The notes under the pieces are model-generated. The model searched no databases, was not told the DNA's origin, and saw only the letters and a list, made by a program, of their open reading frames with translations. From the NCBI GenBank assembly GCA_964480395.1, contig CAYZQB010000007.1, positions 1-37,370 on the forward strand: DNA of 37,370 bases, read 5' to 3'. Of the stretch, positions 2,258 through 28,564 are shown piece after piece. A program made the position numbers and the translations under genes. This DNA comes from an uncultured Planctomycetia bacterium. Lineage in GTDB: Bacteria > Planctomycetota > UBA8742 > SKZP01 > CAYZQB01. Each line of letters begins with the position of its first letter. Position 1 is the first letter of the stretch.

Positions 2258-2298
2258 TCGACATCGTCAATAGGTCAAATTGTATTTGTGTCCATTTT
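2258..2298 (+). promoter_or_regulatory. Copy 1 of conserved bipartite element (TCGACATC-gt-CAATAGGTC-N13-GTCCATTTT), upstream of the ABC ATPase gene
   Basis: The exact 11-mer GTCAATAGGTC at 2266-2276 is identical to 21566-21576 and 28534-28544. GTCC follows after the same 13-nt spacer as in the copies at 21566 and 5705. The TCGACATC-NN prefix is shared with the copy upstream of the sigma gene. Confidence 0.5.
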
Positions 2299-2410
2299 TA
2301 GATGATGTAAAAAAAAGGTGGAAAGTGCGCAAATTTTCTTAGAATTATCAGGATTTTTGATATAAAGTGTCCTGCTTACAAAGATTTATAATCAATTTGA
2401 AAGGGATGAG

Positions 2411-4951
2411 ATGTACACAAGTGCAACAGCGACAGAAGTCGTCGTCAGCGTTCGCGATTTATACACCCATTTCAAAACTGCTGAGGGTATTGCACGTGCT
2501 GTCGATGGAGTCAGCTTCGATATTAAACAGGGAGAAACATTTGCAATTGTTGGCGAATCGGGTTGTGGCAAATCTGTAACTGCGTATTCGATTATGCAGC
2601 TTGTTCAGAAACCTGCAGGTTTTCATCCTCACGGTGAGATTATACTGAATAGCGAAAGTATCAAGAATTTTGATATCTTAAAGATGAATGAGAAAGAGAA
2701 GCGTGAGATGCGCGGTGGTGAAGTCGCCATGATATTCCAGGAACCTATGACTTCTCTTAATCCGGTTTTTACGATTGGGCATCAAATTTCCGAAGCTGTT
2801 GTGCTGCACCAGAATGTTTCATGGAAAGATGCATGGAATATCTCAATCGACATGATTCACAAAGTTGGCATTCCAGACCCTGAACAACGGGTCAAAGAAT
2901 ATCCGCACCAATTATCAGGAGGAATGAAGCAACGTGCTATGATTGCAATGGCACTTTCATGCAAGCCCTCACTTCTTATTGCTGATGAGCCGACAACCGC
3001 TCTTGACGTTACAATCCAGGCACAGATTCTAAGTTTGATGAAAGAGCTCCAGGAAGAAATGGGTATGAGCATCCTACTTATCACGCACGATCTCGGAGTT
3101 GTATGCGAGATGGCGGACAGAGTTGGTGTTATGTATGCCGGAAAAATAGTTGAAAAAGCGAGTAAGGAAGTTTTATTCTCGAATCCGCAACATCCTTACA
3201 GCTTGAAACTCTTCCAGTCATTGCCAGATATAGATAAAAAAGGACAACATTTAAATGTTATCAAGGGATTTGTGCCTAACGCTACAAAATTCCCAGATCG
3301 TTGCAGGTTCGCAGACAGATGCGACTTTATGTTTCATCCATGTCTTGATGATACATTAGAACCAAGACTTCTAAATATTGGTGTGGACGATGAACATCTT
3401 GTTGCATGCCATGGATTTGATGAAAACATTTCTGACAGACCGAAAATCGAGTTGAAAGAAATTGAAGCAATATTTGAAAAACCAACGTTTGAGGAATCAC
3501 CGGTTATTCTAGATGTTCGTAATCTTAAGCAGTATTTCCCGATTAAAGCACGAAAAATTTTCTTGAAAACAAAAATTAAAATATTTCTTGGAATACTGAA
3601 TATATTTGCCCTGGCAACAGCATTGTACGCATTATTATTAGACCAAAATGTAACAGCAATCACAATGGGAGCCGCATGCATACTCAGTTTTGGTGACGTA
3701 TTCTTAAAAACACGCAAAGGCGGGATGCTCTCGATTATTTCATATACATTGTTTTTAATTTTTGGTGTTTTATTCATGATAAACGTTGCAGGGATTGTTT
3801 TCTTCCCGCTTGTTTTCTTCTGGTTTATTATGCTTATGAACCTGTTGATGCCCGGAAGATTAAGCTTAAGAGCTGTCGATGACGTAGATCTCACAATACG
3901 TAAAGGTCATACGATGGCGTTGGTTGGAGAATCAGGCTGCGGCAAGACGACTATGGGTAAATCGATTATTCAGCTCAATAAAACGACGGCTGGTTCTGTA
4001 CGCTATGGTGGTAAGGAATTAACGAATCTTAAAGGTGAAAGTCTCAAGCCGTTCAGACAAAAGATGCAGATTATATTCCAGGATCCTTACGGTTCTTTGA
4101 ATCCGCGACAGATGATTGGTGAAATCATTGAAGAAGGTATGCTTGTACATGGTGTTGGCAAAACAAAAGAAGAACGAGAAGCGATTATCCGCGATGTCCT
4201 GCGTCATGTTAATATGGCACCTGAAATGATGACTCGGTATCCGCATGAGTTTTCTGGTGGTCAACGTCAGCGTATTGGTATTGCACGTGTTCTGGCGATT
4301 CAACCGGATTTCGTTGTTTGCGATGAACCAACCTCAGCACTTGATGTTTCAGTACAAGCACAGATATTAAACCTTTTGAATAAACTTCAGGACGAATTCG
4401 ATTTAACGTTCCTATTTATAACGCATGATCTACGTGTTGTTGAGTTTATTGCAGACCATGTTTCGGTCATGTATCTGGGTAGAATTGTTGAAGAAGGTAA
4501 GACAGAGGAAATCTTTACAAACCCGAAACACCCGTATACAAGAGCACTACTTACAGCGATTCCTGAGACTGACCCAAAATCCGGCTTTAAGAAGATTAAG
4601 CTTGAAGGTGATGTACCGTCTCCGATAAATCCTCCGCGAGGATGCCATTTTAACCCTAGATGTCAATATGCTATGCCGATTTGCAGAGCAGCATATCCTG
4701 GTACAACAGAAGAAACTATTACACACAAAGTGAGATGCTTCCTATATGGTATGGGTGAAATTGACATACCAGAAGAAGTTAAGTGGGAAGGTCGCAAACA
4801 GCTTTTAGATTGGGACGAAGAAAGAGCAAAAGTCAGACAAATTAAAGAAGACGCTGAAGATGATAGACGCTCAAAGATAAAAAACCACAAAAATAAGATT
4901 CAAGAAGAAAAGGACAAAAAGGACAACGATGTCAAAGACGAACACAAATAA
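2411..4951 (+). CDS. ABC transporter ATP-binding protein with duplicated Opp/Dpp-type ATPase domains (YejF/GsiA-like architecture), an internal hydrophobic insert and a charged C-terminal tail
   Basis: Two complete NBDs are present. Walker A is GESGCGKS and GESGCGKT; signatures are LSGGMKQR and FSGGQRQR; Walker B is [12 protein letters not shown] and [12 protein letters not shown]; ITHDL H-loops occur twice. Each NBD is followed by the Cys-rich Opp-type C-terminal segment ([15 protein letters not shown]; [15 protein letters not shown]). Confidence 0.9.
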
Positions 4952-5010
4952 TTGTGTGATATCTGAAAGTAAAACATTTAGCGATTTAGAATAACTATTA
5001 AATCATAACC

Positions 5011-5037
5011 AAAGGGAGCTATTATTATGCTCCCTTT
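5011..5037. terminator. Hairpin between the convergent ABC ATPase and sigma factor genes (candidate bidirectional terminator)
   Basis: AAAGGGAGC (5011-5019) pairs with GCTCCCTTT (5029-5037), giving a 9-bp stem and 9-nt loop. T-rich flanks on both strands are short. Confidence 0.6.
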
Positions 5038-5054
5038 GCTATTTGTCAGTCTAA

Positions 5055-5654
5055 TCAGTTAACACTATTAATCTGATTTTTGAGTATTTCACGTAGCTTA
5101 TGTTCAGCATGCATCATGCGTGTTTTAACTGTACCCAGAGGAATCTCAAGGATTTTTGCAATATCTGCATATTTCAAATCCTGAAAATGCGCCAGCACGA
5201 AAACCATGCGATGTTTTTCATCAAGTTTTTTAACTGCTGATCGAATAATTTCAACAGTCTCATCACGAGAAATCTTATCCTCAACAGATTCATCATCCGC
5301 CTCAAACTGATATTCTGAATTTGTATCGTCGAAACCATTATTTCCGTTTAGCGACACTTCTTTCCTCTTTTTCTTTTTCAAATACTCGTTAATAAACTCA
5401 TTTTTACCAATCTGAAAAAGATATGTACTGAATTTCCCTTTTGGAAAATAATTATCAACACTTTTCCAGAGTTTCAGAAAAGTCTGCTGAGCCAAGTCCT
5501 CAGCAAGTTCTGAATCCGCACCCATTTTGCGAAAAAAGTTAAATATAGGTTTCTGATATTTCAATACAATTGCTTCAAACGCTTGCATGTCGCCGACCTG
5601 CACGCGCAGCATGTGTTTTATATCCTCTCTTGTTGATTCATCTTTATCAAACAT
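5055..5654 (-). CDS. RNA polymerase sigma-70 family factor, ECF-type
   Basis: About 200 aa with sigma region 2 (DLAQQTFLKLWKSVDNY) and a region 4 HTH (YADIAKILEIPLGTVKTRMMHAEHKLRE). An acidic linker separates them. No obvious anti-sigma gene lies downstream. Confidence 0.85.
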   Translation of the reverse strand: MFDKDESTREDIKHMLRVQVGDMQAFEAIVLKYQKPIFNFFRKMGADSELAEDLAQQTFLKLWKSVDNYFPKGKFSTYLFQIGKNEFINEYLKKKKRKEVSLNGNNGFDDTNSEYQFEADDESVEDKISRDETVEIIRSAVKKLDEKHRMVFVLAHFQDLKYADIAKILEIPLGTVKTRMMHAEHKLREILKNQINSVN

Positions 5655-5704
5655 GATTGCACCAGTTCTTTACAGTTATATCTGCTTTTCATCTACAACG
5701 CTGG

Positions 5705-5745
5705 CAGTAGGACTCAAGTGTTACATGTCCTATTGTAGATGTCGA
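5705..5745 (-). promoter_or_regulatory. Copy of the bipartite element, read on the minus strand as TCGACATC-ta-CAATAGGAC-N13-GTCCTACTG, about 50 nt upstream of the sigma factor start
   Basis: The plus strand shows CAGTAGGAC (5705-5713), a 13-nt spacer, GTCCTATTG (5727-5735), then ta and GATGTCGA (5738-5745). This is a near-perfect 9-bp inverted repeat with the same spacing as copies 1 and 2. Confidence 0.5.
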
Positions 5746-5838
5746 AAAGAAAAGCAGAAAATCTGCCAATGAAAGTAATCATAGCAAAAGCACTATGAAA
5801 GATTAATAAATAATAAATTGATTAGAGATACCGCTTTA

Positions 5839-6624
5839 TTATGGGAGCAACGGTTTGTAATAAACCACGTAAGTACTACCGTTGAACATATAAAAACGGC
5901 TATTTGTTGTCAGAGCTTCTAAAATATCGACCTTAAGCTGACCCTTAACAACTTTGCCGTCAACTGAACCTGCGAGATTATCAAGATTTACAGTCGGGAA
6001 TTGCCAATTTGGCACATAAGCAAGCGGGAAATTAAATTCCTCACACGTTATTCCCATCTTTTGGTAATCATAGATTTTGGCATTGCCGGAAAAATCTATG
6101 TATTCATGAAGATAATTAATAATCTCATTTAGTCCTTGTGGTGCACTGTTGCCGATTGATTCGACAGTTTTCTTTTTCCACTTCAGGTTCAAGGTTACTT
6201 TATGTATGCCGTTATATGACGGGTTATTATCATACAATTTGTCGAGGTTCAAGAAATCTCGATCATTGAGATATTCTATGTAACCTAAGACATCGTTCTC
6301 CGAAAGCATAATCTCACTTAACTGATACGATGGCTGATATACAAATATCGGACCGCCATAATACCCGGGCATCATAAACATCGGGAATACAAGAAATTCG
6401 CTGTAAATCAGTCTGCCGTCACCATAAAGCGTGAAAGAAGGATTTTTCTCGAATTCTGAAACCAATTCACCGTTGTTCGGAAAATATGCATATTGGATAA
6501 CAATATTTGAAGCAGATTTGTCGTAATCTGTTAATGATACTTGAGTGTTTAAGTTAGCAGCGCAGCCACCAAAAACCAAAATTAATAAGCCAATGATAAA
6601 CAAATTAAAACGTAGAATTTTCAT
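5839..6624 (-). CDS. Hypothetical lipoprotein
   Basis: N-terminal signal peptide with a lipobox-like LVFGGC (MKILRFNLFIIGLLILVFGGCAANL). I recognise no family motifs. Confidence 0.6.
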   Translation of the reverse strand: MKILRFNLFIIGLLILVFGGCAANLNTQVSLTDYDKSASNIVIQYAYFPNNGELVSEFEKNPSFTLYGDGRLIYSEFLVFPMFMMPGYYGGPIFVYQPSYQLSEIMLSENDVLGYIEYLNDRDFLNLDKLYDNNPSYNGIHKVTLNLKWKKKTVESIGNSAPQGLNEIINYLHEYIDFSGNAKIYDYQKMGITCEEFNFPLAYVPNWQFPTVNLDNLAGSVDGKVVKGQLKVDILEALTTNSRFYMFNGSTYVVYYKPLLP

Positions 6625-6745
6625 GATACACCAAATTAACTAAAATTAAAACTCAATAACAAAACTCTTAATCGGGTACTGTTATATAAATATACGTGAA
6701 TAAGTTCGAAAAAACTAAATTTGTTCGCAAAATAATGTATTTTTT

Positions 6746-7939
6746 TTATAGATTTGCTTCTTTTCTGAGGATTTCAGCCTTGTCAGTTTTTTCCCATGTG
6801 AAATCTTGCTCATTTCGCCCAAAATGTCCATAAGCTGCTGTTTTCGTGTAAATCGGGCGTTTCAACATTAATTGCTGGATAATTGAAGCAGGTCGCAAAT
6901 CAAAGTGTTTATTTACAAGCTTAATAATTTCATCATCTGCGATTTTACCCGTATTAAATGTGTCTATCACGATGCTGACTGGTTGAGCGATTCCGATTGC
7001 ATAGGCAATTTGCAACTCACATTTGTCAGCAAGACCTGCTTTTACAATGTTTTTTACAATGTAACGCGCAAAATACGTTGCACTTCGGTCAACTTTGCTT
7101 GGATCTTTTCCAGAAAAACTCCCCCCACCATGTCTTCCCATTCCGCCGTAGGTGTCAACAATAATTTTCCTACCCGTCAGTCCGCAATCTGCATTCGGTC
7201 CACCAAGTACAAAACGTCCGGTTGGATTGATTAAGTATTCAATGTTTTCTGAAAGGAATTGCTCAGGAATAATCGGCTTAATCACCTTATTTATAAGAAT
7301 TTCCCTCATTTTCGGGTCTAAATCTCCCTTTCCATTATCAAAGCAAACACTTTCATCATGCTGAGTCGACAAAACTACTGATTTCACTCGTTCTGCTTTG
7401 CCATCCTTGTATTTCACGGTAATCTGTCCTTTGCTGTCAGGTCTGAGCCATGGAATTTCGCCATTTTTACGAAGCTCAGCGATTTTCATCATCATTTTAT
7501 GAGACAGCAATGCTGGCAGCGGGAAAAGCTCTGGTGTGTCAATGCAGGCATACCCGAACATCATACCTTGATCACCAGCACCTTGATCTTCATTCTTCTG
7601 TGTCGTTGTGTTAACACCTTGGGATATATCAGGTGATTGCTCGTGAATCCGAATATCCACTTTACAAGTATTCCCGTTGAAACCGAGTTCTTCTCTGTCA
7701 TAACCGATTTCGCAGATAACTTTTCTTGCGATTTCTTCGGTTCGTATTTTTACTTTTGAGGTGATTTCACCTGCGATAAGACAGTAATCGGAGGTAACAA
7801 AAACTTCGCATGCAACTCTTGAATCAGGATCACCAGCAATATATGCATCAAGGATGGCGTCTGCAATTGTATCTGCAACCTTGTCAGGATGTCCTTGCGA
7901 GACGGATTCTGAAGTAAATAAAAAGTTTCCATTATTCAT
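6746..7939 (-). CDS. metK: S-adenosylmethionine synthetase
   Basis: Hallmark motifs FTSESVSQGHPDKVAD, GAGDQGMMFGYA and GGGSFSGKDPSKVDRSA; length 397 aa. Confidence 0.97.
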   Translation of the reverse strand: MNNGNFLFTSESVSQGHPDKVADTIADAILDAYIAGDPDSRVACEVFVTSDYCLIAGEITSKVKIRTEEIARKVICEIGYDREELGFNGNTCKVDIRIHEQSPDISQGVNTTTQKNEDQGAGDQGMMFGYACIDTPELFPLPALLSHKMMMKIAELRKNGEIPWLRPDSKGQITVKYKDGKAERVKSVVLSTQHDESVCFDNGKGDLDPKMREILINKVIKPIIPEQFLSENIEYLINPTGRFVLGGPNADCGLTGRKIIVDTYGGMGRHGGGSFSGKDPSKVDRSATYFARYIVKNIVKAGLADKCELQIAYAIGIAQPVSIVIDTFNTGKIADDEIIKLVNKHFDLRPASIIQQLMLKRPIYTKTAAYGHFGRNEQDFTWEKTDKAEILRKEANL

Positions 7940-7997
7940 TAATCATGCTCCGTTTTACTTTGTTAGGAAAATTACATTAAAGAGGAATTACCTTAAA

Positions 7998-8013
7998 ATG
8001 TAGAAATCTACAT
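7998..8013. promoter_or_regulatory. Perfect palindrome ATGTAGA-AA-TCTACAT in the metK / 8104-ORF divergent intergenic region (candidate operator)
   Basis: 7-bp perfect inverted arms around a 2-nt centre, about 60 nt upstream of the metK start codon. Confidence 0.3.
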
Positions 8014-8103
8014 AAAATACTTATTAATCGTAAAATCAATAAAAATTTGTTTTCAGGATACGTTAGCAGTAATTAAAATCAACTGAAACATACCTAAAAA
8101 TAC

Positions 8104-8721
8104 ATGTTCTGGAGAATGATATTGTCTTTATTCGTTTGTGAAATCAGTATCTGGAAATTTCTGCAGATTAGTATGTTTTTGTTAATGATGCTGCTTTTCG
8201 TTTGGGTTTACGTGAAATTCAGACGCAGTCAACCCAGTATTTACATCAGAAATCTCCCAACACCAGTCCCACCAAAAGATTATTCTATATTACCTTCTGA
8301 AAATCAGGACGAAGCAAGGTTTTTTTGGGAATTTTTAGACAAATTCAAAGAAGATTTCGAGAAAAAAGGACACCCCTTGCAGTATCGCCAACTTATTGAT
8401 TTGCTTCAATATGGACCAATATGGGATTTGAAGACTTTTTCTGCTGAAACACTTAAAGAATCAAAACATTTGAGAAAATATGCATCGGATTCTGTGTTGT
8501 GCAGAGAAATTTTTGAGATTATCATTGAAAATTTAAAGAGCATCAAAACTACTGATGAATCAACTTCTGCATTGAATTCGCTCTTACTTACACTTCCATT
8601 AACACAAGCAGATACAAAGGAAATCATCAGTATTTTTGAACAAGAATCAAAAAGATTTTCTTATGATATTGAAAACCTTATTGTAAAATTAAAGAATAAT
8701 TTATCAAAAATTGATGCTTGA
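8104..8721 (+). CDS. Hypothetical membrane-anchored protein
   Basis: ORF with hydrophobic N-terminal segments (ILSLFVCEISIWKFLQISMFLLMMLLFVWVYV) and a helical soluble remainder. No family is recognised and the start is uncertain. Confidence 0.45.
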   Translation: MFWRMILSLFVCEISIWKFLQISMFLLMMLLFVWVYVKFRRSQPSIYIRNLPTPVPPKDYSILPSENQDEARFFWEFLDKFKEDFEKKGHPLQYRQLIDLLQYGPIWDLKTFSAETLKESKHLRKYASDSVLCREIFEIIIENLKSIKTTDESTSALNSLLLTLPLTQADTKEIISIFEQESKRFSYDIENLIVKLKNNLSKIDA

Positions 8722-8926
8722 TTCTTTTTTGATAAAATAATTAATTTGTATTGAATAATGAAACATTGTATTAAATATAGTAAATGTAAGGAGTATTTTA
8801 AATTTTTTTTCTAAGTAACTTTATATAATCTTAGGATTATTAACTTTGAAAAAATACTTAAAAGATTTCATTTTCAAAGCTAAAATAGCATAAAATAAAT
8901 TACTGATTTTAAAGGAGATGAGGAGT

Positions 8927-10888
8927 ATGAAGAGAACTGCTATTCCCTCGGCGATATGCCTGATTCTAGTTGTCCTTTCAACAACCGCTTTTGCTCAGGG
9001 TAGTCCAGCTGACCCATTCTTTGAAGCGAGTTATGATTTCGGAGAAGTTAACGTAGGAGAAGTTGGGACACTTGATATTATTATGGAAAATGTCGGTGAT
9101 GAAGAACTCAAGGTTACCGAGTTAAATGCAACAGGCGCAAATGCTGATGAATTCACTGTCACTGAAGGCAATGTACCGTTTAATATTGCAGGCGGTGAAA
9201 CCCATAAAATCGTTGTAACGTTTACACCAACCGCTGAAGGTGCAAGAACGGCAACATGGGAATTTGTTAGTAATTCACCTTATTCACCGAATGCAACGAC
9301 ATTGTCCGGTACAGCGATAAAAATTCCAGAACCGACAAAACCAGGTGAATTTTCAACAACTGAAGACATTATAAATTTTGGTGAAGTTCTCATCGGTGAA
9401 CAGGTTGAAAAATCAATTGTTATCACGAATAAAGGCGATGATGACCTTGAAATTACAAAAGCAACAATCGCTGGTGTAAATGCAGGAGAATTCTCAATCG
9501 TTGAAGGTACCGCTCCATTTACGATTGCTGGAGGTATGACTCATGAAGTAAAATTCCTTTTCATACCTACTGATAAAGGAGAGAGAAAAGCTGAAATCGC
9601 TTTTGAACAGGCGAATAATCCGCTTCCGAACATCATTACACTTACAGGTATGTGTTCATTCAATCCACCTGTGATTGATATTGATGCTTTAGACCTTGAT
9701 TTCGGTTCGATTAGAATCGGTCAGATATCAGAAAGAACAATCACAATCCGCAATACTGGTGATGATGATTTGAATGTAACAGCAATTAATATCACTGGTG
9801 TTAATGCTGCAAACTTTGCTGTTGTTGTTGGAAAAGCACCATTCACCGTGAAGAAGAATGAGACACATGAAGTTACTTTTGAGTTTAGACCAACAGTTGC
9901 AGGCACAGCGAATGCACTGGCTGAGATTGTGAACGATTATACAGCAGAACCTGATTTTGTTTCACTCACTGGTATGGGTGAAGCGGTTATTATTGAACCA
10001 CCTGTTGACGATGATGTTGACGATGACGAACCTGGTCCAATAGAAACTCGACCGTCAGACTGGGATGCAGATTTCCGCAGAAATCTGCTTGCAGGTCCTC
10101 TTTCGTTTGCACACATGAATGGTTTGTATGCATTGTCGGGTTATGGCGCGATGGAATGGACAGCAGCGACACCTGCAAAGCATTTCTATACAACATTAAG
10201 CTTAAAAATCGCTACTTTCAATGAATATAACGAACAGCCGGATTTTGATGCTACACTGGCATTCCTTGAAATTATGGGCAGATTCGGAATCGTAGATAAT
10301 TTTGAAGCTGGCTTGAAAATACGACTCGGTGGTTGGAAGGGTACAATTCTCGTTCCCGGACTTCCATCAGATTCAGAAGGTACATTCGGGCTTGGTGATA
10401 TTTTCCTTTCAATGAAATATGCTGCGATCCAAAAAGGTGAATTGCCGATGGAACTCTCAGCACTGCTTACTTTCAAGCTTCCTGTCGGTTCACAGGAAGA
10501 TGCTCTTGGCACAGGTGGTTTTGATACAGCATTAAATATTCTTAGCTCATTTTATTTTACTGAAGGTGATAAACTTGCATTGCACCTGATGCTCGGGTTT
10601 ACATATGCTCTTGATGGTGACCAGATAGATACAAGTGCATTCCTATGGGGTTTCTTAGTCAACTTTGGAATGGGTGCAAGTTATGTTGTTATGGAATCGA
10701 ACGATATGTCAATGGCACTATTGTGGCAGCTCGAATTCTATGACCCGAACCTAAGTACAACTCTCGGTGGGCGCGCAGATATTAAAATGGGAAGTCTGCA
10801 TCTTATGCCTGAATTAGGTTTTACCCTCGGTCTGCATGAATTGTCCGCGGATATGGAGATCTACTTCTCAGTGGGTATTCCTTTCTAA
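8927..10888 (+). CDS. Secreted protein: three tandem Ig-like (choice-of-anchor-D/ASH-like) domains fused to a C-terminal outer-membrane beta-barrel-like domain
   Basis: Signal peptide MKRTAIPSAICLILVVLSTTAFAQG. Three ~100-aa repeats share the pattern FGxVxxGE..........N.GD(D/E)(D/E)L.(V/I)T.....G.NA.EF....G..PF.I..G.THE(V/I).(V/F).F.PT. These are followed by an acidic linker (DDDVDDDEPGP) and a ~270-aa domain with alternating hydrophobic strands, a GLGDIFLSMKY motif and a terminal Phe. ATG 8927 is preferred over 8918 because AGGAG at 8913-8917 is 9 nt from it. Confidence 0.75.
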   Translation: MKRTAIPSAICLILVVLSTTAFAQGSPADPFFEASYDFGEVNVGEVGTLDIIMENVGDEELKVTELNATGANADEFTVTEGNVPFNIAGGETHKIVVTFTPTAEGARTATWEFVSNSPYSPNATTLSGTAIKIPEPTKPGEFSTTEDIINFGEVLIGEQVEKSIVITNKGDDDLEITKATIAGVNAGEFSIVEGTAPFTIAGGMTHEVKFLFIPTDKGERKAEIAFEQANNPLPNIITLTGMCSFNPPVIDIDALDLDFGSIRIGQISERTITIRNTGDDDLNVTAINITGVNAANFAVVVGKAPFTVKKNETHEVTFEFRPTVAGTANALAEIVNDYTAEPDFVSLTGMGEAVIIEPPVDDDVDDDEPGPIETRPSDWDADFRRNLLAGPLSFAHMNGLYALSGYGAMEWTAATPAKHFYTTLSLKIATFNEYNEQPDFDATLAFLEIMGRFGIVDNFEAGLKIRLGGWKGTILVPGLPSDSEGTFGLGDIFLSMKYAAIQKGELPMELSALLTFKLPVGSQEDALGTGGFDTALNILSSFYFTEGDKLALHLMLGFTYALDGDQIDTSAFLWGFLVNFGMGASYVVMESNDMSMALLWQLEFYDPNLSTTLGGRADIKMGSLHLMPELGFTLGLHELSADMEIYFSVGIPF

Positions 10889-10905
10889 GAACTATGAAAT
10901 TTACA

Positions 10906-10932
10906 AACCCCGTGTAATAGCGGGGTTTTTTT
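10906..10932 (+). terminator. Rho-independent terminator
   Basis: AACCCCG (10906-10912) pairs with CGGGGTT (10921-10927) around an 8-nt loop, running into a T7 tract. Confidence 0.85.
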
Positions 10933-10977
10933 ATGGAATTTCACAAGTTTTAATGAAAATTGAAAAAGTGAGAAAGA

Positions 10978-11505
10978 TTATCTTACTTCTTTTCTCGGAC
11001 TTTTTCGGAAATTCCGTGAATAATTGATGTAATGCATTGCAGCATCAGCAATCATCTTTTGTTCTCGTTCATTTATCGGTCGAATCGCCTTTGCTGGCTG
11101 CCCCATTATCAGCATTCCGGGTTCGCAGGTGAATCTGGGTGCGACAATACTTCCAGCAGCAACGAAGCAATTTGTTGGAATTATCGCATCGTCAAGCACA
11201 ATGCTGCCCATGCCGATAAGGCATTTATCCTTCAACGTACAGCCATGCAAAGTTACGCTGTGTCCAACCGAGACATCATCGCCAATATTCGTCGGGTTTG
11301 TGTCGTGGGTAACGTGAATCATGCACATGTCCTGAATATTCGAGCGTTCGCCAATTTTTATGTACTGCACATCACCGCGAATCACGGTATTAAACCAAAC
11401 GCTTGAATCCTTGCCGATTTCGACGTCACCGATAATGCGCACCCCGTCTGTGATATACACAGATTCGTGAATGCGAGGGTATTTCCCTAAATATTCGTAT
11501 AACAT
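10978..11505 (-). CDS. Gamma-carbonic-anhydrase-like left-handed beta-helix (hexapeptide repeat) protein, YrdA/PaaY/CaiE family
   Basis: Typical family pattern: IRGDVQYIKIGERSNIQDMCMIHVTH...IGDDVSVGHSVTLHGCTLKDKCLIGMGSIVLDDAII; 175 aa. Confidence 0.85.
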   Translation of the reverse strand: MLYEYLGKYPRIHESVYITDGVRIIGDVEIGKDSSVWFNTVIRGDVQYIKIGERSNIQDMCMIHVTHDTNPTNIGDDVSVGHSVTLHGCTLKDKCLIGMGSIVLDDAIIPTNCFVAAGSIVAPRFTCEPGMLIMGQPAKAIRPINEREQKMIADAAMHYINYSRNFRKSPRKEVR

Positions 11506-11555
11506 GACTAACCTTGATGTTTTCAGACGAATACAGTTTACAATCTGTGATGGAA

Positions 11556-13184: not shown

Positions 13185-13198
13185 CTCAAACCTCCGTT

Positions 13199-13564: not shown

Positions 13565-13625
13565 TCCAATCTCCTATGCTTTCTAATATTATACGATTTC
13601 AAGCAAATTTGGCTTAGATTAAAAA

Positions 13626-16764: not shown

Positions 16765-16807
16765 CAGTCAATTATTGATATTTCAACAATATCTAAAATC
16801 GGGGAAA

Positions 16808-21349: not shown

Positions 21350-21565
21350 TTTTTCTCCGTGTTTGTATTCATGATATTTTAACGTATTATTCAAGCAAAA
21401 ATTCACCTAATTATTAATACTATAAAATTGAAACAATGTTTATTAATCAGTTCGCATTATTTAATACAAATTACGTTGATTAAATGCGAAAAAACCTTTG
21501 AAATTACGATGATTTGAAGGTATAAGTCTCCTTTCTTGTATCAGAGATGCATTTTATGCAATATG

Positions 21566-21598
21566 GTCAATAGGTCGAAGAACTCTTGAGTCCTGTTG
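21566..21598 (+). promoter_or_regulatory. Copy 2 of the bipartite element (GTCAATAGGTC-N13-GTCCTGTTG), 57 nt upstream of the EF-G paralog start
   Basis: Exact 11-mer at 21566-21576 and GTCCTGTTG at 21590-21598. The segment CTTGAGTCCT is shared with the sigma-gene copy. Confidence 0.5.
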
Positions 21599-21654
21599 AG
21601 GATAATGAGAGAAGAGCCTAAAATACTGTGGATTTTGGTAATACGGAGGTCATA

Positions 21655-23757
21655 ATGTCGATTCAGGATTTGAGGAATGTCGCATTTGTTGGACATGGTA
21701 ACTCAGGAAAAACTGCAACTGTGGAAGGATTGCTCTACACTGCGAAAGCTATTTCACGTTGGGGAAGAAGTGATGACAAGACTTCAATACTCGATTATCT
21801 TGATGACGAAAAAGATAAAGCTTATTCTATAAATCTTAAGATCGGTCGCCTGAAGCACAACAAGGTTGACATAAATGTAATTGATACTCCTGGCAAGCCG
21901 GATTTCCTTGGTGAAGCGGTTTCAGCATTGTATGCGTGCGATACAGCGGTTATTACAATCGCAGCTAATGCGGGTATTCAGGTTAATACTCGAAATGCTT
22001 GGAAAATCTCGGAAAAAGCTAATGTTGCAAAGGCAATTCTCATTACAAAAACCGATGCTGAAAACATCAGAGTCGAGGATGTGATTAAGCAGATTCAGAA
22101 TACCTTTGGCGACAAGTGCATCCCAATAACGTACCCAATCGGTGAAAGTGTGGATATGGTGGATGTAATCGATGTAATCAATCTACCTGAAAACGCGCCT
22201 GATGCTGCTGTGTCCTACAGAGAAACACTTGTTGAGAGATCAGTTGAAGCAGACGATGAAATAATGGAAAAATTCCTTGAAGAAATGGAAATCGATGAAG
22301 CAACTTTCAACAAGGTTTTGAAAAAAGCAATCACAATGGGTGTTGTTGTTCCGATTCTTTTTGTCGGAATGACAAAAGAAAAAGGTTATGACATTCTGCT
22401 TGATAAAATTGTCGAGCTTTTTCCGTCACCAGCAGATAATCTAGCGAAATTCAGCATATATCCTCTAGAACCAATGAAAGAATATATTAAAGCCAACGAA
22501 CTGGATATATTCAGCACTGTCATCACTGAAAAAACTGACATTCAAAAGCCAGAGCCAGAAACTATCGAATCTGCTGATGGTGATTTCCTTGCACAGGTCT
22601 TCAAATCAACAATTGACCCACAAACCGGAATACGAAACAGTTTTATCAGAGTTGTTCGCGGTGAAATGACAAGTGATGGTGCAATATACAACTGTTCAAC
22701 CGAAAAAATTGAAAAAGTAACGGGTTTCCTACATATCAGCGGTAAAGATACAAAAAGAATTGATAAAGCTGTTGCAGGCGATATTGTGGTTATCTCAAAA
22801 ATGGATTCCTTACATACTTGCACAACGATAACCGGTACGAACCATAAGATGCTGGAAGGATTTCCCTTTCCTCTTCCAACTGCTTCATTTGCTGTTCATC
22901 CGAAAACTCAAAAAGACGTTGATAAAGTCGGTGAAGCAATATCAAGAATTCGCGCGGAAGACCCAACTTTCGTTGACAGGATAGATCCAGTTACAAAAGA
23001 GCGAGTTATTGTCGGTCTCACTGACCTTCACTTGAATATTATGCTTGACCGCATGAAAAAACGCTCAAAAGTTGAAGTCGAGACAAGCTTACCCATAATT
23101 CCGTATAAAGAAACTATAACCGGTAAAGCTGCTGACAGCTATCGGCATAAGAAGCAGTCGGGTGGTGCTGGCGAATTCGGCGAGGTTCATATAGAAATCA
23201 GTCCGAGTGAACGTGGTGCCGGCTTTGAGTTCGAAAACGCAATTTTCGGTGGTTCAATTGACAGAGTTTTCATTCCTTCAGTTGAAAAAGGATTGAAAGA
23301 TCAGATGGCAAAAGGAGTTATTGTCGGTTTTCCTGTTGTTGATGTTCATGCACGACTATATGACGGGAAGACACATCCTGTTGACAGCAAGGACAGGGCA
23401 TTTCAGGTTGCTGCTCGCGAATGCTTCAAGAAGATTTTTCCGCATGCAAAACCAAAGCTTCTAGAGCCATATATGGAAATGGAAGTTCATATTCCAACTG
23501 AAAAAGTCGGCGACATTCTTGCGGACATCTCCGGTGCTCGCAGAGGGCGCGTTAACGATCAGATTACTGATGGTGATTTTGCAACAATTATGGCAGTTGC
23601 ACCACTTTCGGAGATTCAAACTTACAGCCAGAGTCTTCAGTCGATGACAGGCGGTGAAGGAACATTTACGATGAAATTTAGCAACTATGAAATAGTGCCT
23701 GAGAATATAACACAACAGATAATTGCAAAATATGCAAAAAAAGTTGAAGAAAAATAA
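21655..23757 (+). CDS. Elongation factor G paralog (EF-G-like translational GTPase)
   Basis: G1 is GHGNSGKT, G3 is DTPGKPDF and G4 is TKTD. The domain IV tip context is YDGKTHPVDSKDRAFQVAA. About 700 aa. Start ATG 21655 has GGAGG 5 nt upstream; the ORF is open from GTG 21628. Confidence 0.88.
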   Translation: MSIQDLRNVAFVGHGNSGKTATVEGLLYTAKAISRWGRSDDKTSILDYLDDEKDKAYSINLKIGRLKHNKVDINVIDTPGKPDFLGEAVSALYACDTAVITIAANAGIQVNTRNAWKISEKANVAKAILITKTDAENIRVEDVIKQIQNTFGDKCIPITYPIGESVDMVDVIDVINLPENAPDAAVSYRETLVERSVEADDEIMEKFLEEMEIDEATFNKVLKKAITMGVVVPILFVGMTKEKGYDILLDKIVELFPSPADNLAKFSIYPLEPMKEYIKANELDIFSTVITEKTDIQKPEPETIESADGDFLAQVFKSTIDPQTGIRNSFIRVVRGEMTSDGAIYNCSTEKIEKVTGFLHISGKDTKRIDKAVAGDIVVISKMDSLHTCTTITGTNHKMLEGFPFPLPTASFAVHPKTQKDVDKVGEAISRIRAEDPTFVDRIDPVTKERVIVGLTDLHLNIMLDRMKKRSKVEVETSLPIIPYKETITGKAADSYRHKKQSGGAGEFGEVHIEISPSERGAGFEFENAIFGGSIDRVFIPSVEKGLKDQMAKGVIVGFPVVDVHARLYDGKTHPVDSKDRAFQVAARECFKKIFPHAKPKLLEPYMEMEVHIPTEKVGDILADISGARRGRVNDQITDGDFATIMAVAPLSEIQTYSQSLQSMTGGEGTFTMKFSNYEIVPENITQQIIAKYAKKVEEK

Positions 23758-23861
23758 CAAGCGTGAAAGTTTTTAGCGATATTATTAAAAGAAATTGAAT
23801 GAATAAAACATTTTGGTTATCTTGCTAATAACAAATCAAGAATGCTGATTGGACATAAAGC

Positions 23862-25910
23862 ATGGATAAAAAATTATTACAATTTATGACAGCAATTACG
23901 CTACGGAGAATCAGTCAGCTCAAGTATCGCAGTGTGATAAATGCACCAGATACAAATGATAATAATATAATCAGTATTTACGAAATAGCCGGTGAATTAT
24001 GTGAGGATTTTAAGGATGTTATCCTGCAGGAAGCACGGGAACTCGCTCAAACCAGTGCTGAAGACAAAAATCTTTCACCTGAAAAAATTGCTTTGATGCT
24101 CGCTGAGGCAATTCCACTTTATGCTGGCTACAACGACATAAAGGATAATTTTCCTGACAATTCGGAGATTACTAGAAAAGTACTGAGTATCAAAGTCGGT
24201 CATCCTGCTGATAAATCCGACTATTATTTCGCAATCATTCGGGATAATGCGAATAAAGACCCATTTGTACCCGTCGAAGAACGTATGTTGACGAAGCCAC
24301 TTGAATCAGATCTGAGTGATTTGTACGAGAAAGTTTATATTGATGCGAAAGCATTGATAAATCAGCTTAATATTTCGAATTTTAATCAAATTTTGACTCA
24401 ACTCATAGAAATGCTTATGCCAATTCCGATTAACTCCGGAACTGATACTTTTCTCTCGATGGGGAGTTATTTCCGTGCTGTTCTAATTATCGGTTGCTCG
24501 ATTTTAAACGAGATAAAATCGCATGGACCCGGAGTGATGCAATCCGATGAAAGTAATTTATGGGCGTTAACCAAGATTGAAATCGTAAAACTTGGCATTA
24601 ATGGAAACTTGCCGGGTAGTATTATAGAAGAATCCAGGGAATTTCAGGTTTTAAGGAAAGAATTATTCGATGCGATGAAAACAGATACCCTGATTATTGA
24701 AAACCACGAACTTAAATCAACACTACCGAATCATATCTACCTGCTTCACAATAAATCTTTTAGTGAAGAATTGACTCGGAAAATTAAACCTGCAGTAACA
24801 CATTGGTTTGCTCAAAATCGTGCTGCTACATGCGTTGCAAGCGTAGAATTAAACAAAAATGACCTTTCTGATACTAAAAAATTTGAAGAATGCCTGAAAA
24901 AAGTGGATTTGAAAGCACATCATGAAATTGTGCACAAAATTGCCTTAAATTCTTTTTCTCAACCCGTGAAAGAAAAATCTAATGCGGAAAATCTTAAGAA
25001 AACGAGTAAAATTAACCCGCCAGAACTTGTTCAAAAAGCAGCATCAGAAAGCAGAATACCGATCATGGGTATGCTTCTAATTAAACAGGAAACTCAGCCG
25101 GAGTTAATCATTAACCGTGGTGCTGGTTTGCCTTCAATTCTTTTCGCAAATGACAGATTCACTCATTTCTGGGAAAAAATTGTTCCTGATATCGCTGGGA
25201 AATACCGTTTTTCAACAAGTATGATACATCTTGAAAAGGGTGATGTATTAATTAAGAATAAATTGTCGAGACTTCTAAGTTTCACAAGGGAATTTTTCAA
25301 TCTATATTATGATTTTGGAATGCCTGTGAGCATCAGCGCAAGCATCACAATGAATCAAGAAGGAGATGATGGCAAGAACCTGTCAATGACACATCAAGGT
25401 TATGTGGATGCAAAAAACGCAGTTCGCCCAAAAATTAGGACAGATAACCAAAATATCAATCCTTTCAGCGGTTTCAAGGGCAGCATGCTTTCTCTTTGTT
25501 TATTTGAGAATACGTCAAAAAACACAATTCCGAGTGAAGACCTGAAAATATTCTTCGAAATGATGCGTCAAATTGGATTACTTGCGGGTTATAGAGTCAA
25601 TAATGAAGATATTGTCCCACTTTCTAGTCAGACCAAACCTGAAATATTCAATATAGTACACTCAATTACGAATAAAATAAAGAATGATAAAGGTTTCAAC
25701 TGGCAATCAGTTTTGTATTATATGCTAACAGAGAAATTTAGTGATGAAGCTGATGCAAAAACTATAAATCTCAACGAACAAGCTGTAAACGACCTTTTAC
25801 ATACCTTAAGATATAATCGATGGCAGAACATTCAAAGACTGATGTCAAAACCTGCTCATCTTTATCTGAATATTTTGGCAAAATGGTTGAAAGTATTAGA
25901 ATTAACTTAA
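23862..25910 (+). CDS. Large hypothetical protein in the Cas10 (type III large subunit) position; possibly a highly degenerate Cas10 lacking HD, zinc-finger and GGDD motifs
   Basis: It lies immediately 5' of a csm2-csm3-csm4-csm5-like series, with its stop 18 nt before the next start. Length is 682 aa. The only Cas10-like trace I see is MIHLEKGDVLI (aa 454-464) followed about 30 aa later by PVSISASITM. This resembles the Palm2 pattern hhY-GGDD-hhh ... T-h-S-A-G-h with GGDD degraded to EKGD. There is no N-terminal HD and no CxxC pairs. The C-terminal ~130 aa look helical. Confidence 0.4.
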   Translation: MDKKLLQFMTAITLRRISQLKYRSVINAPDTNDNNIISIYEIAGELCEDFKDVILQEARELAQTSAEDKNLSPEKIALMLAEAIPLYAGYNDIKDNFPDNSEITRKVLSIKVGHPADKSDYYFAIIRDNANKDPFVPVEERMLTKPLESDLSDLYEKVYIDAKALINQLNISNFNQILTQLIEMLMPIPINSGTDTFLSMGSYFRAVLIIGCSILNEIKSHGPGVMQSDESNLWALTKIEIVKLGINGNLPGSIIEESREFQVLRKELFDAMKTDTLIIENHELKSTLPNHIYLLHNKSFSEELTRKIKPAVTHWFAQNRAATCVASVELNKNDLSDTKKFEECLKKVDLKAHHEIVHKIALNSFSQPVKEKSNAENLKKTSKINPPELVQKAASESRIPIMGMLLIKQETQPELIINRGAGLPSILFANDRFTHFWEKIVPDIAGKYRFSTSMIHLEKGDVLIKNKLSRLLSFTREFFNLYYDFGMPVSISASITMNQEGDDGKNLSMTHQGYVDAKNAVRPKIRTDNQNINPFSGFKGSMLSLCLFENTSKNTIPSEDLKIFFEMMRQIGLLAGYRVNNEDIVPLSSQTKPEIFNIVHSITNKIKNDKGFNWQSVLYYMLTEKFSDEADAKTINLNEQAVNDLLHTLRYNRWQNIQRLMSKPAHLYLNILAKWLKVLELT

Positions 25911-25927
25911 CGAAACAAGGAGTATAT

Positions 25928-26854
25928 ATGTTTGCAGAAGAAATTAACGAAGATATGAAGGAAAGAAAAGATACTTCAGCTGAGGAGATAAAAGAAGAAC
26001 CTGAAACTATTGACGAAAATAAACCTGTAAAATCAGCGAAAAATACTGAAACTAATGCTGAAGACAAAGTTGAAGCATTAAATGATAAAGCTGATGCTGA
26101 TGTTGTTAAGGACGAAAAGCATGATGAAAAACCTGTTGACAACTCAAAATCAGTAAAATCAGAAAAAATTACTAAGGATAAAAAGGATAAATTACTAGTT
26201 GAGACAGAGATACAAAAAGAATTACAGGATATTAAAACCTCGAAAACTCAAAAGGATTCTATTAAAATTAAGGATTCTGCTCAGGAAGAATCTAAAGAAT
26301 CGATCCTTACTAAAAAGGAAATTAAACTTGATGAACCGCGTAAAAGCAAGACGGAATCAGGTAGGTTCGAGAAAAGAATAAGTGAGCGAAAAAGAATAGA
26401 CAGACGCGGACTTCGTCAGGGAATCAGACGTGAAGAATATCGTAATAAAAGCTATGATGCACTTCCTGCACGAGATCAGAACATTAAAGAGATAATAAGC
26501 TCTGGAAATCCCGATTTAATCAACAGAACCGCTGAAGATTACGCAAAAACATGGGGTGACAGACCACCGTGGATTAAAAACCGTTTTTCTTCATTCCAGA
26601 TACGACCGATTATTTCAAAAATCTTGAAAATCAGAAAAAAAACCTTCGCATACGAAAACGTAAACGAGCTGAAACTTCTGAAACCATTGTTAGCATATAT
26701 TGCACGCAGGTATCACGACGACGATCTTTATGAATTTTCGCGAATAATAAGATATGCGATTGATGATGTCGGAGACGACCCGCAAAAGTTCAAATATTTT
26801 TGCTCGTTCTTTGATTCTCTGCTTCTGTATTTCAGGGCTAACGGTGGTAAATAA
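25928..26854 (+). CDS. csm2: Csm2-type Cas11 small subunit with a ~180-aa Lys/Glu/Asp-rich N-terminal extension
   Basis: The C-terminal ~125 aa carry Csm2 family hallmarks as I recall them: SSFQIRPIISKILKI, ELKLLKPLLAYIARR and KFKYFCSFFDSLLLYFRANG. Start 25928 is preceded by AAGGAG (25917-25922). The N-terminal part is low-complexity charged sequence ending in an Arg-rich patch (RFEKRISERKRIDRRGLRQGIRREEYR). Confidence 0.75.
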   Translation: MFAEEINEDMKERKDTSAEEIKEEPETIDENKPVKSAKNTETNAEDKVEALNDKADADVVKDEKHDEKPVDNSKSVKSEKITKDKKDKLLVETEIQKELQDIKTSKTQKDSIKIKDSAQEESKESILTKKEIKLDEPRKSKTESGRFEKRISERKRIDRRGLRQGIRREEYRNKSYDALPARDQNIKEIISSGNPDLINRTAEDYAKTWGDRPPWIKNRFSSFQIRPIISKILKIRKKTFAYENVNELKLLKPLLAYIARRYHDDDLYEFSRIIRYAIDDVGDDPQKFKYFCSFFDSLLLYFRANGGK

Positions 26855-26885
26855 CATTAAATCCAAAACATAAGTGAGATTGATT

Positions 26886-27644
26886 ATGCAATTAGACAAA
26901 CGAATTTTCCTAAAAGGTTACATTATTGCTGAAACAGGTTTGTTAATCGGTGGAACTGACACAGGACAAGGACTGAGCGGAGCAGACAAGGTTGTTTTAC
27001 GCAATCCTATCGATGAAAGACCGTTTATCCCTGGTTCGTCCATAAAAGGCAAAATGAGAATGCTATTGGATCAGCTTGCTGGGATTTATTCTGAAACCGA
27101 TGAGAAAAAAACTGCCAGTGAGATTCACAAAAAGATCGCACGATTGCTTGGAAAAATCAGCGATGATAGAGCAGAAAGTCCCAGAATGCTTATTATCCGG
27201 GATGCTAATCTTGTGAACCACAAGTATCTTGAAGCACAAGAGCATCTTGATCTGCCTTACACTGAACTAAAAACCGAAGTTTCAATCGATAGAATCACCG
27301 CGAAAGCCACGCCACATTGCTATGAAAGAGTGCCTTCAGGAGCAGTATTTTGTTTCGAGATGATTTTAAGCACTTACGATTTCGGCAAATCCAAGGACGA
27401 TGCAAAACAATATGTCGAGTTGATATTAACTGCATTATTGCTTCTGCAGGACGATTATCTGGGAGCAAACGGCTCGCGCGGTTACGGTAAAGTAAGATTT
27501 CACGTGAATGATATAAAAATGCGCGACAAAGAAGGTTATATCAAGAATGCTGAGCCAATTGATTTCACTGAAGTCAACGTACCAGCTGAGCTGAAACTCG
27601 AACAACCGGTTCTTGATGAAATTAATTCGCAGATTTCTAAGTAA
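26886..27644 (+). CDS. csm3: Csm3-family RAMP (Cas7 backbone subunit)
   Basis: The N-terminal stretch is GLLIGGTDTGQGLSGADKVVLRNPIDERPFIPGSSIKGKMRMLL, which holds the G-rich loop, the catalytic-Asp context and the IPGSS-KG-R motif. The C-terminal motif is LGANGSRGYGKVRF. Confidence 0.88.
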   Translation: MQLDKRIFLKGYIIAETGLLIGGTDTGQGLSGADKVVLRNPIDERPFIPGSSIKGKMRMLLDQLAGIYSETDEKKTASEIHKKIARLLGKISDDRAESPRMLIIRDANLVNHKYLEAQEHLDLPYTELKTEVSIDRITAKATPHCYERVPSGAVFCFEMILSTYDFGKSKDDAKQYVELILTALLLLQDDYLGANGSRGYGKVRFHVNDIKMRDKEGYIKNAEPIDFTEVNVPAELKLEQPVLDEINSQISK

Positions 27645-27662
27645 AAACAATGAGGTTGACCG

Positions 27663-28517
27663 GTGAGTGATTACGATTTTATCGAATATAAATTGAGTTT
27701 TAAACAATCATTAAATCTGCCAATTTCTTCGTCAAACGAGATTTATCCTGTCTTATATTCCGACTGGTTGTATAAAGTGTTTGAAAGCGGATGGAAAAGA
27801 TTGTTTAGTGAGGATTTTCCGTACAATGACATCCGAATCACTTCCGGATTTCCATACTGCAAGGATTATTCACATGTTCTTTTCTATATACCGGAAAAAT
27901 TAGAATATTTGTCCGTTGCACGTGATGCACTTGCTGCTGGTGAGATTATACTTGGCTCAAATTGCTGGCGTTTTTTCTCGCGCCCTAGGGCAGAATTCAA
28001 CAAAGATACTGCACGCAGGGAAAAACGCTTTACAACAGTTGAAATATATTTCAAGAAAAATTCTGGAATCTGGTTTGGGTCGCGATTTACTAACTCGACA
28101 AGTCAGAAGAAATTCGAGAGTGTAATTCGGTTTATCGGTGATGAGGGCATCGGCGGCGGTCGTTCAGTAGGTTATGGCGGGTTTGTGCTTTCAAGCATCG
28201 AGGAAATATCAGTTTACAAAGAGGAACACTCTCTAATGCTTTCACTTTCACGCTTCAAAATACCCGAATCTTCAATTTCAGAAGACCTTTTTTGCGAAAT
28301 ACGACCGATGACAATTGGATTGAAATCTACAAAAACTGGAAAAAAGATTAATTTCTTGGTATTTGGCGAAGGCTCACTTATGAATGTGAGTGATAAAGTT
28401 GATTATTTATATGCTGGTGAATTTATCGGAGAAGACAGCAAAAAAGCAAAAGATTACTCGAATCGTGCAGCATTGCTTTTTGCTATGCCAGTACCAGCGA
28501 AATTGCAGACTTACTGA
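27663..28517 (+). CDS. csm4: Csm4-family RAMP (Cas5-like subunit)
   Basis: N-terminal YKLSFKQSLNLP...VLYSDWLYKVFESGW matches the Csm4 pattern (beta-strand, then sD-T-L-F-S-A-L-like helix). The C-terminal glycine-rich loop is IGDEGIGGGRSVGYGGF. GTG start has GAGG 8 nt upstream. Confidence 0.75.
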   Translation: MSDYDFIEYKLSFKQSLNLPISSSNEIYPVLYSDWLYKVFESGWKRLFSEDFPYNDIRITSGFPYCKDYSHVLFYIPEKLEYLSVARDALAAGEIILGSNCWRFFSRPRAEFNKDTARREKRFTTVEIYFKKNSGIWFGSRFTNSTSQKKFESVIRFIGDEGIGGGRSVGYGGFVLSSIEEISVYKEEHSLMLSLSRFKIPESSISEDLFCEIRPMTIGLKSTKTGKKINFLVFGEGSLMNVSDKVDYLYAGEFIGEDSKKAKDYSNRAALLFAMPVPAKLQTY

Positions 28518-28533
28518 CATTCTTTTCATGTTT

Positions 28534-28564
28534 GTCAATAGGTCAATCGATTTTGTTCCTATTG
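28534..28564 (+). promoter_or_regulatory. Copy 3 of the bipartite element (GTCAATAGGTC-N10-GTTCCTATTG) inside the csm4-csm5 intergenic gap
   Basis: Exact 11-mer at 28534-28544. CAATAGG (28536-28542) and CCTATTG (28558-28564) are perfect 7-bp inverted repeats. The spacer is 2 nt shorter than in the other copies. The element ends 60 nt upstream of the csm5 ATG. Confidence 0.5.

Follow-up and report, generated by a model that had tools for sequence, protein, structure and literature searches.

Four copies of a ~90-nt, partly palindromic module in a planctomycete contig: a possible insertion-derived repeat upstream of unrelated genes

The DNA analysed here, referred to as the window, is the whole 37,370-nt contig CAYZQB010000007.1 (assembly GCA_964480395.1) of an uncultured Planctomycetia bacterium, whose nearest named relative is 'MAG: Planctomycetes bacterium' (GCA_021106775.1). 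Four sites in it share a bipartite motif, first noticed as a candidate regulatory element; the genes downstream are unrelated: a fused double ABC ATPase, an extracytoplasmic function (ECF) sigma factor, an elongation factor G (EF-G) and csm5, in a Csm2-3-4-5 block. The family formed by these four copies is real. Its motif lies at the centre of a well-delimited non-coding unit of 79-95 nt, and sequence comparison shows the copies to be homologous beyond the core. As judged from alignments to related genomes, the csm5 copy is a lineage-specific 88-nt insertion; it post-dates the divergence from the closest relatives sequenced and cut short the end of csm4. The sigma copy, present in one relative and missing from another, is a 95-nt block with the CAGA boundary in common. 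The four sites, a density of four copies in 37 kb, are interpreted with moderate confidence as diverged copies of an insertion module of the 'mobile promoter' type, resembling miniature inverted-repeat transposable elements (MITEs) or repetitive extragenic palindromic (REP) sequences; one of the copies would have been exapted. Across the 37 kb of the window and ~14 kb from the closest relative, the family numbers four copies and one orthologous copy.

Members and anatomy of the family

The core of the motif, GTCAATAGGTC, is exactly present on the plus strand at 2266, 21566 and 28534; a fourth core, CAATAGGAC, is found on the minus strand at 5735-5727. In three copies exactly 13 nt separate the left arm from GTCC; the csm5 copy has GTTCC at a distance of 10 nt. 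TCGACATC-NN lies directly 5' of the core in the ABC ATPase and sigma factor copies. Each copy is oriented with its downstream gene, and the end of the core is 112 nt (ABC ATPase), 56 nt (EF-G), 59 nt (csm5) or 50 nt (sigma factor) from the start codon. The initial annotation had described these positions, letters, spacings and orientations, and all of them were confirmed. The same is true for the arms, described as inverted repeats: 80% of the cells pair, as compared to 29-60% when the partner is slid (31-43% except for the +3 shift). Only the left arm is invariant among the copies; the right arm is variable, from 5/9 (copy 1) to 8/9.

The rarity of the 11-mer, originally put at 0.02 expected occurrences, turned out not to be evidence by itself. 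In the window 44 canonical 11-mers occur at least three times, and Markov-1 simulations yield a mean of 33 and a maximum of 50; the triple 11-mer alone is not significant, because about 33 such words are expected by chance. Membership is established by the longer similarity. The pattern AATAGGNC-N10-16-GTCC has 3 matches against 0.01 expected (a post hoc test), and nhmmer, searching with profiles built from three copies, finds each omitted copy (E = 1.3e-7, 6e-4, 5e-4 and 1.7e-3), in alignments of 57-87 nt. The omitted copy is always the top new match, reverse-strand self-matches of the palindromic sigma copy aside; these self-matches are also the only other matches at E < 0.01. The weaker look-alike at 34127-34141, upstream of the alpha-2-macroglobulin gene, falls outside the family: it has no nhmmer match and no GTCC arm.

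Wider searches added no members. An 18-base pattern gave 3 chance matches, in unrelated phyla, in a genome-contig collection that does not include this lineage; a metagenome scan with Csm5 returned the window's own sequence only; of 37 pattern-only matches in viral contigs, none was extended by nhmmer (0/37).

The four units, with their parts, are the following:

2251..2329, plus strand: copy 1, upstream of the double ABC-ATPase gene (ATG 2411); CAGA 2251-2254, TCGACATC 2258-2265, core GTCAATAGGTC 2266-2276, 13-nt spacer, GTCCATTTT 2290-2298, A-rich 3' part
5672..5766, minus strand: copy 4, the 95-nt indel unit upstream of the ECF sigma gene (ATG 5654); GCAGA 5766-5762, TCGACATC 5747-5740, CAATAGGAC 5735-5727, GTCCTACTG 5713-5705
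21542..21629, plus strand: copy 2, in the divergent region between a gene for a 1532-aa protein and the EF-G gene (ATG 21655); CAGA 21542-21545, core 21566-21576, GTCCTGTTG 21590-21598, end ...ATACTGT as in copy 4
28506..28593, plus strand: copy 3, the 88-nt insertion between csm4 and csm5 (ATG 28624), starting with CAGA; core 28534-28544, right arm GTTCCTATTG 28555-28564 (the best palindrome, with a shorter spacer)

The units are 51-59% identical in pairwise comparisons. All of them feature, in this order, a 5' (G/T)CAGA, a T-rich stretch, a TCGACATC-like box, the core and TTGNGTCC; a GTTGAGG/TAGATG box and an A-rich run make up the common 3' part. The core consensus, (K)(W)CAATAGGNC-N13-GTCC, is asymmetric and partly palindromic. 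Outside the core, the flanks are more alike than random intergenic DNA from the window (P = 0.018 for the 5' side, P = 0.08 for the 3' side), and the conserved CAGA matches both of the independently mapped indel boundaries described below. The 5' side of copy 1 is ~13 nt shorter than in the other copies, and its 3' boundary is approximate; the leave-one-out value is 1.3e-7 for this copy and 5e-4 for copy 2.

The extent of the palindrome differs among the copies. When each unit is compared to its own reverse complement, z is 3.1 for copy 4, 2.7 for copy 2, 1.0 for copy 3 and -1.2 for copy 1: an extended quasi-palindrome is formed by copies 4 and 2, but not by the other two. In copy 4 the outer arms TCTGCTTTTC and GAAAAGCAGA produce a long quasi-palindrome, and its ends, CAGATTTTCTGC and the reverse complement CAGTTATATCTGC, match at ~10/13 positions; copy 2 also shows CAG...CTG, and copy 3 has no terminal inverted repeat.

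Each unit ends 17-81 nt before the downstream start codon. No open reading frame or start codon is common to the copies; a shared leader peptide or upstream open reading frame was considered and rejected, since copy 1 has no start codon and the frames differ. A sigma-70 promoter placed consistently across the copies was not found inside the element on either strand.

Presence and absence at orthologous sites

Three related Csm loci (sequences L011, L012, L013 and L014), with Csm5 proteins 88%, 86% and 70% identical to that of the window, were available for comparison with the csm5 copy; for the sigma copy, the orthologs were L001 and L002 (87% identical), L003-L005 (82-83%, syntenic) and L006-L009 (58-59%, non-syntenic). 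Three further features are relevant to these comparisons:

28594..28614, plus strand: relic of the csm4 3' end, TGCAGAATTTAGATTAATTAA, shifted downstream by the insertion
5699..5771, minus strand: conserved 5' two-thirds of copy 4, where conservation between the window and L001 is highest
5778..5806, minus strand: sigma-70-like promoter candidate, TTAATC-N17-(TGc)TATGAT, by consensus resemblance only

The csm4 stop and the csm5 start are separated by 9 nt in L011, L012, L013 and L014, and by 106 nt in the window. The alignment features a single clean 88-nt gap, corresponding to 28506-28593 and beginning exactly at CAGA; the copy is absent from the relatives. The C-terminus of Csm4 reads ...PVPAKLQTY* in the window, as opposed to ...PVPAK(M/V)CN(S/L)Q(T/I)N* in L011 and L013 (...AKVCNLQIN* in the latter) and ...PVPAKMYKLQSN* in L014. 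Just past the block, the window sequence TGCAGAATTTAGATTAATTAA, which reads CRI*IN*, is identical at 16/21 positions to TGCAATCTTCAGATTAATTAG, the CNLQIN* end of csm4 in L013. This relic lies downstream of the block: the difference is therefore an insertion in the window lineage, not a deletion in the relatives.

Two other explanations were tried. A TGCAGA target-site duplication at this copy was discarded, the flanking repeat being the csm4-end relic itself. A CRISPR repeat was also rejected, as there is no array in the window and the csm5 copy is dispensable in the relatives.

L001 and L002 carry the copy upstream of the sigma gene, L003-L005 do not. In the latter the upstream neighbour gene is the same, the spacer is 91 nt long and, in L003, a convergent gene is found downstream. 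Single-gap alignment to L003 isolates one 95-nt block, window 5766-5672, with the boundary at (G)CAGA; no target-site duplication was seen at this copy. L003 being the outgroup, either a gain in the common ancestor of the window and L001 or a loss in L003 would produce this pattern. Upstream of the more distant homologs, L006-L009, no copy was detected by nhmmer or by a search for the core pattern.

The 5' 66 nt of the sigma copy are conserved at 65/66 positions between the window and L001. For comparison, identity is 61-68% at third codon positions of the flanking genes, 72-85% in other intergenic sequences (Fisher p = 2e-4) and 72% in the 3' third of the copy itself. In the 7.8 kb alignment, which includes metK, this is the sole 66-nt block reaching at least 64/66, the 99th percentile being 62/66. 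Such identity, in the best stretch of 7.8 kb, therefore indicates that the sigma copy is under strong purifying selection at the DNA level; given this constraint, a cis function of some kind is likely at the sigma locus.

The promoter candidate at 5778..5806 is kept in the window, in L001 and in the element-free L003, and copy 4 starts ~12 nt downstream of its -10. It was read from the alignments; the promoter scan did not list it (first hexamer 3/6). At the 5' edge of the sigma copy (5768-5753, minus strand), the sequence TGGCAG-N5-CTGCT, kept in L001, resembles a sigma-54 -24/-12 element with GG-N10-GC spacing. The same bases also form a short terminator-like hairpin, followed by a T-run. 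A sigma-54 promoter was nonetheless rejected: the single match in the window compares with 0.82 expected, and the other copies have none.

The initial interpretation is thus only partly upheld. A real, oriented, partly palindromic cis-element exists, with the sigma copy conserved as described. On the other hand, the comparisons do not bear out an inherited regulon that would unite the sigma factor and the Csm-like block: the csm5 copy is absent from the three related Csm loci, and the 83% identical, syntenic sigma ortholog has no copy. As for the proposal that the motif might be a repeat dispersed irrespective of gene starts, which would have told against a regulatory element, the copies do appear to be insertion-derived, but every one seen lies upstream of a gene.

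Competing readings of the core

The core could be a promoter module, with tCAATagg as -35 and GTCC as -10, read by the adjacent ECF sigma factor. The sigma copy would then autoregulate its gene positively, the ABC ATPase, EF-G with the Csm-like genes, and csm5 would belong to the regulon, and the regulon would grow by copy-and-paste of the module. SigR/ECF12-type ECF promoters have the form GGAAT-N18-GTT, and CAAT-N18-GTC, in three copies, has the same geometry. Like ECF promoters, the element is bipartite, with a spacing fixed in three copies, a GTC downstream element and a copy upstream of the sigma gene itself. The CAATAGGNC-N9-TTGNGTCC geometry is identical in copies 1, 2 and 4 (2-3 nt shorter in copy 3), and the co-orientation of all copies with their downstream genes also fits. 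The conserved block of the sigma copy would extend from about -60 to about +5 of the predicted start, with the less conserved 3' third, 72% identical, being the part transcribed. Finally, the sigma gene has no adjacent anti-sigma gene and its upstream neighbour is lipoprotein-like, which makes transcriptional control plausible.

Several observations make this explanation unlikely. The motif is missing upstream of the syntenic 83% ortholog, and none was detected upstream of the non-syntenic 58-59% homologs, so that it is not conserved at orthologous sigma genes. The csm5 copy, absent from three related Csm loci, is misspaced: its spacer is 2-3 nt shorter, a change rarely tolerated by ECF holoenzymes. 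The canonical AAC and CGT signatures are absent. Nothing in a promoter calls for -35 and -10 elements that form an inverted repeat, or for a 13-nt spacer identical at 13/13 positions in the two species. A density of four sites per 37 kb would imply, genome-wide, far more sites than in a usual ECF regulon, and the genes downstream are functionally unrelated.

A stronger version of the same idea regards the module as a promoter cassette, complete in itself, that moves and is read by the adjacent ECF sigma factor; its spread would be actively rewiring a regulon. The cassette would have reached the sigma gene first, downstream of an older sigma-70-like promoter, establishing positive autoregulation. 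Later it would have taken over the ABC ATPase and EF-G together with an array-less Csm-like effector with an orphan large subunit, and last csm5 alone. This scenario is considered quite improbable.

The inverted repeat itself suggests an operator, with half-sites CAATAGGAC and GTCCTATTG bound symmetrically by a dimeric (or dimer-of-dimers) regulator, encoded elsewhere, which would repress or activate the genes. The arms are a genuine inverted repeat, given the 80% complementarity and the slid controls reported above, the sites are 50-112 nt upstream of start codons, and the conservation of the sigma copy takes in both arms. The spacing of the arms, N13 in three copies, is N10 in copy 3, however, and the half-sites would be unequal, with an invariant left arm and a right arm reduced to 5/9 in copy 1. 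No regulator gene is present in the window, two of the four sites are indels when compared to close relatives, and similarity over ~90 nt exceeds what an operator needs. An operator is considered quite improbable.

The palindrome might instead act as RNA, as a hairpin transcribed in the 5' leader or in intercistronic RNA, and serve as a stabiliser, a processing site or a translational modulator, similarly to transcribed REP or ERIC sequences. Three copies are flanked by genes of the same direction and would be transcribed along with them; copy 3 is inside an operon. The 95-nt sigma copy folds better than its shuffled versions (z = -3.9 sense and -5.05 antisense; -3.0 and -4.3 for the L001 ortholog): the potential to form a long hairpin is kept in both species, despite a differing 3' arm and a 3' third that is 28% diverged. 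In the core the species differ by one substitution, A to G, which on the sense strand still allows a G-U pair.

Such folding is confined to one copy. The other three fold no better than shuffles on either strand (z from +0.07 to -1.1), and the 121-nt regions around them give z from -0.2 to -1.6. RNAalifold predicts a consensus structure with 0 pairs, there are 0 compensatory changes in the inner stem, and none of the four sites matches Rfam at gathering thresholds or at E <= 10; the covariation that the initial annotation suggested looking for is thus not observed. Wobble and mismatch asymmetry favours opposite strands in copies 2 and 4, which points to a DNA palindrome rather than to a strand-specific RNA. 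In the sigma copy the strongest constraint is on the 5' two-thirds, including the 'loop', and not on stem complementarity. A role as a transcribed hairpin is therefore rated as rather unlikely.

Known small repeats and the genes around the copies

An insertion-derived repeat module is the reading preferred here, and it could work as follows. An enzyme whose gene lies elsewhere in the genome would move the module in trans, recognising the near-invariant left arm and the hairpin. With no target-site duplication and no convincing terminal inverted repeat, this would resemble hairpin-recognising systems (HUH/RAYT- or IS200/IS605-type) more than cut-and-paste MITEs. Insertions would survive only in gene-upstream or intercistronic DNA, and their effect on the neighbouring gene would differ from copy to copy: the sigma module, ~12 nt past the -10 of the sigma-70-like promoter, may have been exapted as a DNA-level control region, while the csm5 copy would be a recent, probably near-neutral arrival.

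A number of points weigh against this explanation. No target-site duplication is seen at copy 3, the one cleanly polarised insertion, whose junctions are TTG|CAGA... and ...CCGA|TGC; the terminal inverted repeats are weak as well. Three copies agree exactly over the 11-nt left arm despite an overall identity of 51-59%, which looks like selection on a binding site and not like neutral decay. All four copies point toward the downstream gene, ending shortly before its start; such an orientation would arise by chance with a probability of about 1/8, copy 2 being uninformative because it lies between divergent genes. The sigma indel fits a loss as well as a gain, as said, and the known family amounts to four copies and one orthologous copy. 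No candidate mobilising enzyme was seen, the proteins of the window including no transposase; they include no transcription factor or other DNA-binding regulator either.

Among known families, Correia, ERIC and REPIN are listed as promoter-carrying mobile elements (PMC3575422). The regulatory MITEs, such as Neisseria Correia, enterobacterial ERIC and pneumococcal RUP/BOX, share a number of properties with the units of the window: they are short (~80-150 nt), non-coding, imperfectly palindromic and multi-copy, they are present or absent at orthologous intergenic sites with discrete boundaries, and they may insert at the ends of genes; some of their copies contribute a promoter or an RNA hairpin. 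The window units, like MITEs, have no transposase of their own. They differ in having neither a target-site duplication nor clear terminal inverted repeats, in being far more diverged, at 51-59% identity, than typical active MITE families, and in that their conserved part is the central core plus the 4-nt 5' end, not the termini.

REP families mobilised by RAYTs and tagged with GTAG or CGTC have been reported in Planctomycetes; for CGTC families, TGTC and CCTC tag variants are allowed and loops are 4-5 nt long (PMC3733652). The window core may be drawn as a 31-33-nt stem-loop with 9-bp arms, within the 20-40-bp range of imperfect palindromes typical of REPs, and tag-like unpaired tetranucleotides can be read at one end in each copy: CGTC in copy 1, GGTC in copy 2, TGTC in copy 3 and CTAC (the reverse complement of GTAG) in copy 4. 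The lack of target-site duplications and the occasional insertion into gene ends are further similarities to REPs and REPINs. The loop, however, is 13 nt long, as opposed to 4-5 nt in CGTC families, the tag is not constant, and the inserted unit is ~90 nt, neither ~35 nt nor a head-to-head dimer. There is no RAYT gene in the window and no second core within any of the units.

Putative mobile promoters (Matus-Garcia, Nijveen & van Passel 2012; commentary PMC3575422) are defined by at least 80% identity over at least 50 nt, with non-homologous genes downstream. The likeness lies in homologous non-coding DNA upstream of unrelated genes in one genome, in the -150 to -50 zone, in the absence of a known insertion sequence or Rfam family, and in the proposal that such elements rewire transcription. 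With 51-59% identity over ~90 nt the window copies are below that definition, and the resemblance is conceptual only. attC and dif-like sites were also considered and dropped, as R''/R' boxes are lacking. The module is placed among small dispersed palindromic repeats in general, as an addition to that class that falls outside any named family.

If the preferred reading is correct, what looked like a regulon signal is a side effect of a small repeat that moves, and the motif provides no basis for placing the Csm-like genes, EF-G and the ABC ATPase under common control with the ECF sigma factor. The csm5 site would represent, in an uncultured planctomycete, a clear and datable case in which a module of ~90 nt entered an operon and reshaped the end of a gene. 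Its sister copy, now the most constrained sequence before the sigma-factor gene, would illustrate a first step in the exaptation of mobile DNA into regulation. The nhmmer profile of the four copies is directly usable for a census of the family in complete genomes of the lineage.

The closest relative has two other small insertions bearing terminal inverted repeats, at sites that are both empty in the window. One, TGTCATTCTGAG...TTCAGAATGACA, lies between csm5 and adk in L011 (~2960-3090); the other, GTCATTCC...GGAATGAC, between metK and a gene for a 199-aa protein in L001 (~4280-4365). Turnover of small elements is thus active and frequent in this lineage, in keeping with the insertion reading. 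Contigs L060 and L061 come from the same population as the window, with 99.8-99.9% identity.

The ECF sigma gene (5055-5654, minus strand), which has no anti-sigma gene next to it, and the ABC ATPase gene converge. Upstream of the sigma gene, a conserved neighbour (5839-6624, minus strand) encodes a 261-aa predicted lipoprotein, as read from the translation, with no family match. Downstream of the 58% identical sigma homologs of L006-L008 there is instead a gene for a 124-aa protein (cut off at 115 aa in L008), and after it, in L006 and L007, yicC.

The EF-G gene (21655-23757) scores above the NCBIfam cutoff for its EF-G subfamily. ATG 21655, with GGAGG upstream and in agreement with the 700-aa NCBI product, is a likelier start than GTG 21628. 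The nearest retrievable EF-G homologs (L019, L020, L021 and L022), 52-54% identical, do not adjoin Csm genes, and the EF-G/Csm pairing in the window accordingly looks incidental. No close ortholog of the copy 2 region was retrieved.

The Csm-like block (23862-29820) is composed of genes for a 682-aa protein, a Csm2 C-terminal fusion, Csm3, Csm4 and Csm5; the 37-kb contig as a whole contains no CRISPR array, cas6, cas1 or cas2. For the 682-aa 'large subunit', Pfam, NCBIfam, PADLOC and PDB yield no sequence match, and its AlphaFold2 model is unusable (predicted local distance difference test score, pLDDT, of 42). It has 3 relatives among 1.84 billion representative proteins, and an EGDD motif near residue 520. 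A Csm5-like RAMP gene, 36% identical, is present in L015 (10001-11182), a different metagenome contig, with no other Csm genes nearby; it adjoins a large Ser/Thr kinase-TPR gene.

Two further repeats are present in the window. Four to five 75-nt tandem repeats (33436-33810) lie inside a 494-aa open reading frame of unknown function (32485-33969, minus strand), and the 9-nt sequence ACAGAAATA, repeated six times, makes up an array at 32177-32232, in the spacer downstream of tRNA-Pro.

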